A DNA stretch of 35,240 nt from NCBI GenBank assembly GCA_963741205.1, contig CAVUHW010000038.1, positions 1 through 35,240 of the forward strand, given 5' to 3'. The DNA comes from Nitrospirota bacterium. GTDB taxonomy: Bacteria > Nitrospirota > UBA9217. Under the pieces are notes generated by a model. The model saw only the letters and a list, made by a program, of their open reading frames with translations, searched no databases and had not been told where the DNA came from. Positions 10,217 through 14,838 of the stretch are shown here, in pieces. Position 1 is the first letter of the stretch. Each line of letters opens with the position of its first letter. The position numbers and the translations under genes were made by a program.

Positions 10217-10387
10217 AGAAAGGAACAAAACGCAAAGAGAAAGTGCCGAGAAACTGTCCAAGAACGAGGTACAAATGCGCTCAGAAAAAATCGGCAAATT
10301 AACGTCTCCGCAGGCTCGACAAGCGAAAGCTATGACATTCAGAAAGCCATGACGGCTATTATACGAATTCCAGAACAGGAGGATACA

Positions 10388-11801
<1,414 letters not shown>

Positions 11802-11820
11802 ACGAATACGACGCGAATCG

Positions 11821-11857
11821 ACCGGGACCTTTCATCAAAGGGTCCCGGTTTTTTTTC
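11821..11857 (+). terminator. Rho-independent terminator of glnA
   Basis: accgggacctt-loop-aagggtcccggt followed by a T-tract. Confidence 0.9.
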
Positions 11858-12260
11858 GCCCTCGATAGCGTAATATCTCATAAATCCCCTTTCCTCTCGG
11901 CGTCGTTCCGGATTGTTTGGTGCCCAGGAATGTCCGGTGGTGCAACGGCGCGTCTCCGAAAACCGTCGCGGCCTCGACTGCACAGTCGCTTGAGCCTGCG
12001 GGCACTGTCGACCGGGCGTACTTATCGACAGTAGAACGAGCATAATGAGGACTTCTATTGAAAAAAGACTCGAAAATAGGCAGAGACGAATAACGTCGAG
12101 ATAAGAAGTCGGCTGCGGTTGTCGTTCAATATGCCGATCAGACCATAAAATGCAGCAAGAAACAAAAGAGTGCTATAATAATTTTAATTCCTCTGAAAAA
12201 TTACAAGACCGCAAGATGGGGGACAGCAACTAGAACTGCTGAAGCATCCGGAGACCATCC

Positions 12261-13025
12261 ATGGTAACAAAAGGACCCGCGAAAAAACTGATTATTTATA
12301 TGGACGAGAGGGACATGCATAACGGAAAGCCCGTTTATGAAGTGTTGCTCGATATTTTTTTCGAAAAGAAGGTCATGGGCGCGAGCGTTTTCCGGGGCAT
12401 CACGGGATACGGCAGCGACGGCGTATTTCATCCAACCAGGGTACTTGAGCTGTCCGCTGGCATGCCGGTGAAGATCGAGGTCGTTGAGTCAACGGAGATG
12501 ATCAACAGGATTCTTCCCGATGTCTATCGGGTTGTTGAGAAGGGCATAGTGGAAGTGACAGACACGAGCGTCGTCAAGTGCTGCCCCGATGCGGACGATA
12601 AGCGAAAAGAAAAAGGAGGACATATGAAGCTCGAAGGCAAGGCCAAGATGCTCCGGATCATCATTAGTGAAGATGATAAATGGGGGGGTGAGCCTCTGTA
12701 CCAGGCCATCGTGAAACGGCTTATCACGACCGACATCGCGGGCGCAACCGTCTACAGGGCGATTGCGGGCTACGGCCCTCACCGCCGCTATCGCCAGAAG
12801 AAGACCCTTACCGTGCATGGAGATCTGCCCATCTTAATCACGATCATGGATACGGAAGAGCACATCAAGAAAGTAATCCCGATACTTGATGACATGGTCG
12901 GCGAAGGCATCGTCGTAGTTTCCGACGTGAATGTGATCAAGTATACCCACCGAGACGCTTCGGCAGGCCTGGAGTCGGCGCTGGAATCTTTCAGCGAGGT
13001 AAAAGGCAATGGGGTTTTCCGATAA
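12261..13025 (+). CDS. Tandem DUF190 (PII-like) domain protein
   Basis: Two homologous halves: KLIIYMDERD..GASVFRGITGYG..MPVKIEVVES and MLRIIISEDD..GATVYRAIAGYG..DLPILITIMD. Confidence 0.85.
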   Translation: MVTKGPAKKLIIYMDERDMHNGKPVYEVLLDIFFEKKVMGASVFRGITGYGSDGVFHPTRVLELSAGMPVKIEVVESTEMINRILPDVYRVVEKGIVEVTDTSVVKCCPDADDKRKEKGGHMKLEGKAKMLRIIISEDDKWGGEPLYQAIVKRLITTDIAGATVYRAIAGYGPHRRYRQKKTLTVHGDLPILITIMDTEEHIKKVIPILDDMVGEGIVVVSDVNVIKYTHRDASAGLESALESFSEVKGNGVFR

Positions 13026-13133
13026 CTCCGTTTGAACAGGCGTCGGACCGGCCGGCAGGTATCCGCGGATGCTGGCTACTGATGATGTGCTCGAATGGAT
13101 GAAGCCGCTTCTGATGAAGTGAATGACTCCTCC
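13005..13133 (+). ncRNA. Candidate fluoride (crcB) riboswitch with long P2 insertion
   Basis: 5' GGCAATGGGGTTTTCC (consensus GGCGATGGAGTTCGCC), a 73-nt hairpin at 13027-13099, then aagcc-GCTTC tgat GAAGT-gAATGACTCCT (consensus AACC-GC..GC-TAATGACTCCTAC). The 3' end overlaps a terminator. Confidence 0.55.
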
Positions 13134-13163
13134 TCTCGAAAACACGGGAGCAGGAGTTTTTTT
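13126..13163 (+). terminator. Rho-independent terminator overlapping the riboswitch 3' strand
   Basis: actcctcctctcg-aaaaca-cgggagcaggagt followed by a T-tract. Confidence 0.8.
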
Positions 13164-13304
13164 GTTTCTTCACAACGGAGGACGACAAAGCGAGCCGTGC
13201 AGCGAATCGGTGGTGTCGCTGGGACAGGAACTCAATTGATCGCTCAAATGCCGCCCCAATGCAGTTTTCCGTAATTCTCCTCCCTGACGCCCCGGGTATT
13301 TTTC

Positions 13305-13333
13305 TTGCCAAAAAAAACTATCTTTGCTAAAGT
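13305..13333 (+). promoter_or_regulatory. Putative sigma70 promoter of the TauE-RidA genes
   Basis: TTGCCA-17 bp-(TGC)TAAAGT. Confidence 0.45.
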
Positions 13334-13386: not shown

Positions 13387-14358
13387 ATGGACTTCCTGAA
13401 CATGACGTTTCCCATATCGGGAGTGACCGCCAACGTTCTTCTTCCGCCGTTCGTTGCAATGGCGATATCCTTCTTCTGTTCCATGGGCGGAATTTCCGGC
13501 GCATTCCTTCTTCTCCCGTTTCAGATGAGCGTTCTCAATTATACGGCCCCGTCCGTGAGCGGAACGAACCATGTGTTCAATATCGTCGCAATTCCGAGCG
13601 GCGTCTACCGCTACATAAAAGAAGGCAGGATGGCCTGGCCGCTCACCTGGGTCGTCATTGCCGGCACGCTGCCGGGCGTTTTCATCGGGTATTATCTTCG
13701 CGTCCTGTATCTTCCCGACCCGAAGGTTTTCAAACTGTTTGTGGGCTGTGTACTGTTGTACATCGGCATACGACTCTTCAAGGACCTGATCGGCGGGAAG
13801 AAGACGCAATCGGCGAGCGCGAAAGCTTTCGAAGAAAAATTCAAAGCAATGTCGGAGGAGCGCAAGAAACAGCAGGGTGGGCGCATTGCTGCGGGCCTTC
13901 CGTCTGAAGCAGTCGTGAAGACCATAAGCGTCTCGTTAAGGAAAGTGGAATACGAATTCTGGGGTGAACGGTTTGCCTTTCACACCATAGGCATGTTCAG
14001 TCTGGCTTTTGTCGTCGGCATCATCGGTGGCGCATACGGGATAGGCGGCGGCGCGATCATTGCCCCTTTCTGTGTTGCCTTTTTCCAGTTACCGATCTAT
14101 ACCATCGCGGGCGCCACCTTGATGGGAACGTTCATAACCTCGGTTGCGGGCGCCCTGTTTTTCAGCGTCATTCCCGCTACGAACGGAATATCCCCTATGC
14201 CTGATTGGCCGCTTGGCATTCTTTTCGGTTTGGGCGGGTTTATCGGCATGTATCTTGGCGCTAAGACCCAGAAATACGTGCCGCAGAAGTTCATCAAGAT
14301 CATCGTGGGCGCTGCCATCATGTTTCTCGCGGTAAAATATATCGTTCAATTCATGTAG
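13387..14358 (+). CDS. Sulfite exporter TauE/SafE (TSUP, DUF81) family membrane protein
   Basis: SMGGISGAFLLLPFQ..PSVSGTN, a second repeat VGIIGGAYGIGGGAIIAP, GMYLGAK, and many TM helices. Confidence 0.9.
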   Translation: MDFLNMTFPISGVTANVLLPPFVAMAISFFCSMGGISGAFLLLPFQMSVLNYTAPSVSGTNHVFNIVAIPSGVYRYIKEGRMAWPLTWVVIAGTLPGVFIGYYLRVLYLPDPKVFKLFVGCVLLYIGIRLFKDLIGGKKTQSASAKAFEEKFKAMSEERKKQQGGRIAAGLPSEAVVKTISVSLRKVEYEFWGERFAFHTIGMFSLAFVVGIIGGAYGIGGGAIIAPFCVAFFQLPIYTIAGATLMGTFITSVAGALFFSVIPATNGISPMPDWPLGILFGLGGFIGMYLGAKTQKYVPQKFIKIIVGAAIMFLAVKYIVQFM

Positions 14359-14430: not shown

Positions 14431-14838
14431 ATGATTACTCGCAGCAATCCAGACGTCGGATACATGGCCGACGATGTGTTCAGGACGTTCGCCTTTACCC
14501 AGACGATCAAGGCAGGCAATACCTTGTACCTGTCGGGCGTCGCGCCGCTCCGGGGAGACCTCAAGAAGCTTGAGGTGGTGGGAGAGGGAGACTTGAGGGC
14601 CCAGGTCGAGTGGACCCTGAAAATCATGAGGCGCTGTCTGGCGGTGGAAGGCGCGACTTTCCGGAACCTGGTTGCACAGACGGTCTACACGACGAATATT
14701 GCGGAGCTCGGCAACCTGGGCGACCTGTTTCGGAGCGTATACGGAGACTATGCGCCGACGAGCACGTGGGTGGAGGTCAAGGGACTCTTTCATCCCCTGC
14801 AGATGGTCGAGATCAACGGCATCGCAGTGCTGGAGTGA
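14431..14838 (+). CDS. RidA/YjgF/UK114 family protein
   Basis: AGNTLYLSG, QVEWTLKIM, PTSTWVEVKGLFHPLQMVEINGIA. The catalytic Arg position appears to be Ser/Thr (PTST rather than PAR). Confidence 0.85.
   Translation: MITRSNPDVGYMADDVFRTFAFTQTIKAGNTLYLSGVAPLRGDLKKLEVVGEGDLRAQVEWTLKIMRRCLAVEGATFRNLVAQTVYTTNIAELGNLGDLFRSVYGDYAPTSTWVEVKGLFHPLQMVEINGIAVLE

Follow-up and report, generated by a model that had tools for sequence, protein, structure and literature searches.

This study concerns an element resembling the fluoride riboswitch (crcB motif) in the genome of a Nitrospirota bacterium. The window, that is, the whole stretch of DNA that was analysed, comprises 35,240 nucleotides (nt) of assembly GCA_963741205.1 (contig CAVUHW010000038.1), and all coordinates given here are its positions on the forward strand. 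The element spans 13005-13163 on the plus strand and contains both halves of the motif, separated by a 73-nt hairpin, and ends in a terminator that has ACUCC in common with the aptamer pseudoknot. On its 5' side it adjoins a tandem-DUF190 gene (COG1993, PII-like; 254 amino acids; 12261..13025, plus strand), which matches Pfam PF02641 in two stretches (E 8.4e-59). Downstream, on the same strand, follow genes for a TauE/SafE (TSUP) transporter (13387..14358; PF01925, E 6.2e-38; longest open reading frame (ORF) from 13324) and for a RidA/L-PSP protein (14431..14838; PF01042, E 1.5e-14). A comparison with related genomes suggests, with moderate confidence, that the element is most likely a relic: a probably inert aptamer followed by a terminator retained for ending transcription of DUF190.

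The 5' half of the aptamer (13005..13026) consists of the helix P1, its loop AUGGGGUU, which holds the 5' pseudoknot strand, and the linker GAUAAC. P1 joins GGCA (13005-13008) to UUCC (13017-13020) in three of four pairs; pair 3 is a C.U mismatch. The pseudoknot between GGGGUU (13011-13016) and GACUCC (13125-13130) has all six pairs, two of which are wobbles. Between the halves stands the extra, optional hairpin in a long form of 73 nt (13027..13099), with a folding energy of -32.9 kcal/mol (z -2.81) that was equalled or bettered by 2 of 200 shuffles. It is followed by the second linker UGAAGCC and P3 (together 13100..13120). The stem of P3 (13107-13120) pairs GCUUC (13107-13111) with GAAGU (13116-13120) around the loop UGAU; stem and loop are the same as in a canonical riboswitch of a related genome (riboswitch 2 of G004, see below), the one difference being the closing pair (G.U in the window, G-C in G004). 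The 3' conserved block GAAUGACUCCUCC occupies 13121..13133. In the numbering of the Thermotoga petrophila structure, taken from part of the preprint 10.1101/2022.05.19.492696, it holds position 38 (G13121), A40 (13123), U41-G42 (13124-25), U48 (13131) and position 49 (C13132). The nucleotides of the ligand pocket are all present (AUG at 13009-11 and UG at 13124-25), as is A40/U48 (A13123/U13131); the roles of A6, U7, G8, U41, G42 and A40/U48 are described in portions of the same preprint and of PMC11077080.

The element ends in an intrinsic terminator (13126..13163), of which the stem (13126-13157) is formed by ACUCCUCCUCUCG and CGGGAGCAGGAGU and is followed by a run of seven U (13157-13163). 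Its energy is -19 kcal/mol (z -3.65), and only 1 of 200 shuffles was as good. A simple terminator scan did not list it because the stem holds an internal mismatch. The 5' arm of the terminator overlaps the 3' strand of the pseudoknot, as is characteristic of an expression platform, and the DUF190 message has three hairpins in succession at its 3' end. A sequence-only reading of this DNA had described two motif halves, an intervening hairpin and a terminator, and on re-reading all of these are in place. The same is true of the further details it gave: a single P1 mismatch, ACUCC common to pseudoknot and terminator, an expression platform that is intact (the terminators of relatives are homologous), and a 5' half overlapping the last codons of DUF190, of which the stop codon TAA (13023-13025) lies within the GAUAAC linker.

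Is the element truly derived from a fluoride riboswitch? To answer this we used the genome to which the window belongs (G000, hereafter the own genome; 84% complete, 50 contigs) and those of relatives (G001 and so on; L-numbers denote loci). A hidden Markov model (HMM) trained on 26 canonical riboswitches of the same taxonomic family was run over all 35 kb of the window; its top two matches, collinear and on a single strand, are 13104-13169 (29.1 bits, E 1.2e-8) and 13000-13033 (6.8 bits, E 0.1). Of 61 genomes searched at the DNA level (the own and 60 relatives), ten gave matches, the own genome among them; apart from two weak matches elsewhere, most concern P3, the 3' half and the terminator (query bases ~146-204). 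Scanning 11 of the matched loci with Rfam yielded ten canonical fluoride riboswitches with scores of 46.2-65.7 bits. With blastn, window positions 12250-12957 align to the tandem-DUF190 gene of G003 at 78% identity, and 13105-13163 to riboswitch 2 of G003 and G004, namely to its 3' half and terminator (81-83%; 81% for G003), directly 3' of the orthologous DUF190 gene. The metagenome locus L081, whose 5' half is canonical, aligns base for base with the window in this half and across the hairpin base, and the window could also be aligned with G001 and G014, hairpin base included.

Structural support comes from an alignment of six related sequences (the window, G001, G014, G078, L081 and L171), with the structure taken from the window. 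Over four helices 94.4% of the cells are paired, against at most 52.4% with slid partners, and eight pairs are changed on both sides, which was reached by 1 of 500 shuffles. For the pseudoknot helix 100% of the cells are paired. The window copy is the ortholog of riboswitch 2, which is found in same-genus and metagenomic relatives between the tandem-DUF190 and dynamin-like GTPase genes. By these comparisons the element is a true descendant of a transcriptional ON-type fluoride riboswitch of the extra-hairpin subclass, and the earlier identification as a fluoride-riboswitch derivative holds, given the collinear HMM matches and the synteny with bona fide members.

The opposite view would be that an ordinary terminator 3' of DUF190 happens to lie near a 16-nt string resembling the 5' half of crcB. 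The score of the window copy on the Rfam model RF01734 (crcB/fluoride riboswitch) is indeed just 11.9 bits, and strings resembling the 5' half alone reach 10.6-12.2 bits nine times elsewhere in the own genome (14 RF01734 matches at E<=10). We nevertheless give this view practically no credence, as it is already contradicted by the blastn, L081, HMM and six-sequence results: chance would have to account for two halves that are the top two HMM matches and collinear, for synteny with bona fide riboswitches after an orthologous gene, for the base-for-base alignment with L081, G001 and G014 down to the hairpin base, and for pairing far above that of the slid controls.

The sequence-only reading had proposed a comparison of downstream genes in relatives; there, riboswitch 2 precedes a dynamin-like GTPase gene. 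In G003 and G004, which belong to the same genus, the gene order is riboswitch 1, Na+/H+ exchanger, Usp, (MgtC), CrcB, tandem DUF190, riboswitch 2 and a Dynamin_N protein of 602 (G003) or 598 amino acids (G004). Riboswitch 2 scores 57.9 bits in G003 (L024:6791-6855) and 59.3 bits in G004 (L023:6853-6917) on RF01734. In G001 (L073:2795-2936) the core is intact and the dynamin-like gene is still downstream, and in L081 the riboswitch is followed by a 602-amino-acid ORF, which a tblastn search with the G003 dynamin-like protein did not contradict. The copies of G001, G003 and G004 resemble that of the window in lying directly 3' of tandem DUF190, in the P3 stem GCUUC/GAAG and in the terminator; G001 in addition shares the long hairpin and the GGGG variant of the pseudoknot. 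They differ in having an intact core and the dynamin-like GTPase gene next to it, whereas after the window copy comes an unrelated stretch of 120 nt, which leads into the TauE promoter region.

The part of the window that is homologous to the fluoride operon of relatives extends from 12250 to ~13170. What remains is a piece of ~920 bp, tandem DUF190 plus riboswitch 2, between glnA and TauE. A remnant of the dynamin-like gene was sought after the terminator and nothing above noise was found; upstream of DUF190 there is no remnant of crcB or riboswitch 1, the blastn homology with G003 beginning at 12250 and no further HMM match having E<1. Neither the dynamin-like GTPase gene nor a match to the Na+/H+ exchanger protein was found in the own genome, of which the 84% completeness leaves the absence of either gene unproven, and no RF01734 match exceeds the cut-off there. 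The earlier statement that no canonical fluoride gene lies downstream is thus borne out (TauE and RidA follow), and a fluoride-associated gene, DUF190, is found upstream instead. The one crcB gene detected in the own genome (C14:12913-13644; L009:1492-2253) has a single-domain DUF190 paralog after it, next an ORF of 198-216 amino acids, and upstream a small ORF on the opposite strand; no riboswitch is detectable at that locus.

Two further copies are found in a similar situation. In G014 (L077:2678-2816) the dynamin-like gene is gone, GAGGG replaces GAUGG, position 38 is C, and a tandem Usp gene and a P-type ATPase gene lie downstream. In G078 (L076:3114-3208) the dynamin-like gene is also gone, position 48 is C, there is no terminator, and an unknown ORF and a nitroreductase gene follow. 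Like the window copy, both carry the hairpin, no longer have the dynamin-like gene on their 3' side and are changed at conserved positions. They differ in the genes downstream and in scoring much better on a hairpin-tolerant model (see below).

The window copy deviates from the canonical aptamer at several positions. The comparison sets were the 26 canonical family copies and 20 two-hairpin copies from several phyla, 46 in total; for the latter 20 both conserved blocks were preset by the search pattern. All 26 canonical copies have four of four P1 pairs, against three of four in the window, and pair 4, G-C in each of the 26, is A-U in the window. At position 38, where the window has G, 25 canonical copies carry T and one carries C, and 19 of the two-hairpin copies carry T and one C. 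At position 49 the window has C; 25 canonical copies have A there and one has G, and all 20 two-hairpin copies have a purine. Neither G at 38 nor C at 49 occurs in any of the 46 copies. The second linker reads UGAAGCC against the consensus UAAACC. The variable base of the pseudoknot is A in 25 and G in one of the 26, and G in the window as well as in G001, so that this A-to-G change appears to be harmless. According to the part of the T. petrophila preprint concerned (10.1101/2022.05.19.492696), A6/U38 is one of two 'linchpin' tertiary pairs (reverse Watson-Crick) and A49 stacks on A40. As reported in an excerpt of PMC11077080, a U41A mutant of the Bacillus cereus switch is unresponsive; U41 is intact in the window. 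A metagenome search for closer relatives gave a best protein identity of 76%, and the deviant bases were in none of the sequences found. Among the sequencing runs listed there was none of RNA, and all shares were 0.15 or less; in the four runs examined no contig covers 13017-13310, which has no bearing on the state of the element. What sets the window copy apart thus appears to be damage at conserved positions.

Measured against the RF01734 class, the window copy retains P1, the pseudoknot, P3 and the conserved blocks AUGG..GUU and AUGACUCCU; its 3' pseudoknot strand doubles as 5' arm of the terminator, and it is homologous and syntenic with members that score 46-66 bits. It differs in its score, which at 11.9 bits stays under the gathering threshold of 34 bits, in its P1 (four standard pairs closing a AUGGNGUU loop in the class, three of four with A-U at pair 4 here), in lacking U at 38 and a purine at 49, in the altered second linker, in having its 5' half within an ORF, and in the absence of a fluoride-related gene downstream.

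The 73-nt hairpin itself is placed where crcB RNAs are known to have an optional one. The motif was originally described in PMC2864571, and the legend to Figure 1 of the R2R paper (PMC3023696) states that the extra hairpin occurs in 31% of crcB RNAs. We scanned for conserved blocks 45-75 nt apart, using one genome per species, and obtained at least 119 loci, of which 80 were folded. Two hairpins formed in the middle part of 51 of these, a single one in 26 and three in 3, though the count rests on crude minimum-free-energy folds and several loci are probably chance pattern matches. The two-hairpin architecture is common across phyla. Closer to the window, a hairpin of 20-35 nt occurs at the identical site in five sequences, with a base homologous to that of the window ([U/C]CCNUUAGAG ... 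CUCUAANGGGA). These are metagenome-assembled genomes labelled Nitrospirae, Nitrospiraceae or Nitrospira (L171, L147/L167, L153, L101) and the metagenome locus L081, and dynamin-like or Na+/H+ exchanger genes come after the five copies. The same site, between the P1 linker and P3, and a homologous base are found in G001, G014, G078, L081 and L171; over the six aligned sequences 88.9% of the cells of the hairpin base are paired and three pairs show two-sided changes, which agrees with the optional-hairpin subclass. The sequence-only reading had located the hairpin correctly at the optional site, but its term 'variant' is too strong for a published feature that is common across phyla. The difference lies in the length, 73 nt against ~20-35 nt in L081 and the Nitrospirae-labelled genomes. 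A comparably long hairpin occurs only in G001 and G014, of the same genus, and its interior is not conserved with respect to either. The hairpin is not a mobile repeat, since the own genome has no second copy and only matches of 14-22 nt.

The long hairpin also affects detection. At the gathering score Rfam finds no match in the whole window. A search with RF01734 across the hairpin, which the earlier reading had proposed, gave no significant score (the 11.9 bits correspond to E 1.4, and the same score was obtained in the own-genome search), with UGAUGAUG inside the hairpin mis-aligned as 3' half. We built R1, a hairpin-tolerant covariance model based on seven hairpin-bearing sequences, the window copy excluded. 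R1 scores 60.5 bits for G001 (142 nt), 46.1 for G078 and 42.5 for G014 (139 nt), as opposed to 11.4 bits for the window copy (E 0.18, mis-aligned, with a separate 7.0-bit match on the 3' half). G001 and G014 need similarly long skips on R1 (52 and 46 nt) and yet score well; the low score of the window copy is therefore mainly due to substitutions and not to hairpin length. On RF01734, G001 and G014 reach only 31 and 23.7 bits, below the threshold. Here the model aligns a pseudo-5' half inside the hairpin, and because it locks onto this, intact long-hairpin copies drop below the Rfam threshold. As a consequence, surveys of fluoride riboswitches under-count such copies (31 against 34 bits in the example of G001). 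The suggestion that a long insert could hide the element from standard searches is thus half of the explanation: it holds for the intact copy of G001, and the window copy scores low even with R1.

Two readings of these alignments were rejected. Decay of the 5' half in G001 and G014 is ruled out by R1, which places their true 5' halves ~75 nt further upstream, beyond the long hairpin. A MAFFT alignment suggested 13078-13105 as the real, decayed 5' half of the window copy; this segment is the 3' arm of the hairpin, common to G001 and G014. The pseudo-5' half would fit an origin of the long hairpin by partial duplication of the aptamer.

The overlap with the DUF190 gene deserves a closer look. 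After the sequence VIKYTHRD the window protein has a non-conserved tail of 22 amino acids, against 7-9 in L081, G003 and G014. The ORF, stop codon included, runs on for 20 nt past the start of P1; with this overlap it covers the 5' pseudoknot strand as well. In relatives P1 begins 3, 35 or 406 nt after the DUF190 stop codon. The stop codon of L081 aligns with TAA at 13000-13002, which is out of frame in the window. In three metagenome loci (L087:492-564, L090:233-305 and L088:2467-2540) a canonical riboswitch (46.6-57.9 bits) starts right at the end of the tandem-DUF190 match, and tight packing of aptamer and stop codon seems normal in part of the lineage; L088 differs from L087 and L090 by single-base insertions, which may be sequencing errors. 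Upstream of the gene, 82 nt 5' of its start codon, a possible extended -10 (TGcTATAAT, 12171..12179, plus strand) was read by eye and may belong to a promoter; a promoter scan, which needs a -35 match, did not report it.

Downstream, the start codon of TauE is placed at ATG 13387 (MDFLNMTFPIS), as it is conserved among the orthologs, which are 76-83% identical. A sigma-70-like site lies before it at 13305..13333 on the plus strand (TTGCCA, 17 nt, TAAAGT, with TG before the -10). It aligns with TTGCCA...TACAGT 5' of the TauE gene in G007, and TTGACT...TATAAT stands at the same place in G006, G024 and G036. This agrees with the earlier proposal that TauE has a promoter of its own. No riboswitch was detected in G007, with which the promoter-like site is shared, and in the six TauE ortholog loci scanned with RF01734 (E<=5) there was no match. 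In three of the eight close orthologs (window excluded), each of the three 82-83% identical to the window's, TauE adjoins fluoride genes: the order is TauE-crcB-DUF190 in G007 (L032:616-2490) and G008 (L035:1501-3581), and TauE-riboswitch 1-Na+/H+ exchanger in G036 (L043:444-2787). In all three TauE lies upstream of the fluoride genes and is therefore not under riboswitch control there. In G008 a chromate-transporter gene is located 5' of TauE.

Taken together, the reading of the element as a relic would run as follows. In relatives riboswitch 2, at the end of the fluoride operon, would gate read-through into the dynamin-like GTPase gene, of which the own genome would have kept just the DUF190-riboswitch 2 piece. 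With the target gene gone the aptamer would have drifted, giving the P1 mismatch, the loss of A6/U38 by a change of U38 to G, the pyrimidine at position 49 and the changed second linker, and the DUF190 reading frame would have been extended across P1 and the 5' strand of the pseudoknot. The terminator half would have been retained because it ends the DUF190 transcript. The response to fluoride would thus be lost and termination constitutive, with TauE-RidA transcribed from their own promoter. The parallel with relatives argues for this course of events: gene loss goes with core changes in G014 and G078, and a kept gene with an intact core in G001. Of the two options offered by the sequence-only reading, orphaning by deletion or rearrangement is the one we favour, given the missing dynamin-like gene and the changes at near-invariant positions. 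The other, fluoride regulation of a TSUP transporter, finds no support in relatives, none of which shows TauE under riboswitch control.

Several observations weigh against a relic. The contacts to the ligand cluster are all kept, together with A40/U48 and the six-pair pseudoknot. The A-to-G change in the pseudoknot is also found in intact copies (G001), P1 pair 4 has changed on both sides from G-C to A-U and looks compensatory, and the hairpin base stays paired through two-sided changes within a very stable 73-nt hairpin, which would be unexpected after long neutral decay. Two copies that are otherwise normal (G068 and L171) have C at position 38, where U is thus not strictly required, and five changes in ~26 near-invariant positions are statistically indistinguishable from partial constraint. 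Canonical relatives likewise put the aptamer 3-35 nt from the DUF190 stop codon, and closeness to a translated ORF is not disabling in itself. Finally, there is the placement of TauE beside fluoride genes in three of eight orthologs.

Much of this would fit a switch that still works, perhaps more weakly: fluoride would keep ACUCC in the pseudoknot, the terminator would be suppressed and DUF190 transcripts would read into TauE-RidA, giving the TSUP transporter a fluoride-dependent input on top of its own promoter. For such a switch speak the intact pocket, A40/U48, pseudoknot and overlapping terminator, the two-sided changes in P1 and hairpin base, the tolerance of C at 38 and the neighbourhood of TauE orthologs. 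In addition, G001 combines a long hairpin with an intact core and a real target gene, which makes a long hairpin compatible with a normal riboswitch, and from the T-run there are 196 nt without a predicted terminator to the first in-frame ATG (13360) and 223 nt to 13387. We consider a working switch rather unlikely nonetheless. The combination of P1 mismatch, G38 and C49 is absent from all 26 canonical and all 20 two-hairpin copies, the full-length score is insignificant with both Rfam and R1, and the DUF190 ORF covers P1 and the 5' pseudoknot strand. Moreover, TauE is upstream of the riboswitch in G036, with none detected in G007 and G008, it retains a promoter-like site common to G007, and the remainder of a riboswitch-controlled regulon was not found in the own genome. 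The stronger claim, that the switch responds to fluoride, feeds TauE-RidA and, with the placement of TauE by fluoride genes, would put the TSUP transporter in the fluoride response of the lineage, seems to us distinctly improbable; if true, it would link a TSUP anion transporter to fluoride stress.

The element could also have been re-purposed, for instance as stabiliser of the 3' end of the DUF190 mRNA, as a protein-binding site or as an aptamer with a changed ligand. The unusually stable and well-paired 73-nt hairpin, the row of three hairpins and the location of the deviant positions 38 and 49 near the binding pocket would suit this idea. It is however a single example, with the same deviant bases in no second genome and a hairpin interior unlike those of G001 and G014, and there is no sign of any particular other ligand or partner; we regard it as very unlikely. 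A relic thus remains the preferred reading. It would offer a worked case of riboswitch decay, in which the regulated gene is lost, the aptamer drifts and the terminator half survives, outliving the aptamer half because the upstream gene still needs a terminator. G014 and G078 show the same pattern.

Two observations on the family as a whole emerged from the comparison. In many of its genomes a fluoride riboswitch directly precedes a gene for a dynamin-like GTPase of ~600 amino acids, as judged by tblastn and Pfam (L024:6791-8693 in G003, L023:5010-6917 in G004, L081:3214-5149, L073:958-2936 in G001, and L058, L060, L068-L072, L101 and L171). A full-text literature search for the fluoride riboswitch together with 'dynamin-like' returned nothing, and the GTPase is perhaps a member of the fluoride regulon that has yet to be described. 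Furthermore, fluoride riboswitches occur in pairs, 1.3-4 kb apart on the same strand, in G003 (L024:2784-8693), G002, G004, G011, G015, G016, G026 and G036. The first precedes the series Na+/H+ exchanger-Usp-(MgtC)-CrcB-tandem DUF190, and the second lies 3' of the operon and gates the next gene, which looks like a two-stage read-through design.

Elsewhere in the window, the glutamine synthetase gene glnA is broken up into two ORFs that overlap in different reading frames, one at 10349-10903 (Gln-synt_N and the start of Gln-synt_C) and one at 10800-11801 (the rest of Gln-synt_C); the cause is either a frameshift or an error of assembly. Downstream, at 11820-11850, is a strong terminator-like hairpin. 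On the minus strand, a 300-amino-acid ORF at 14881-15783 matches only positions 251-371 of the 384-position AMP-binding profile, possibly as the fragment of a gene. Both this ORF and the split glnA point to gene decay in the region or to an assembly prone to errors.

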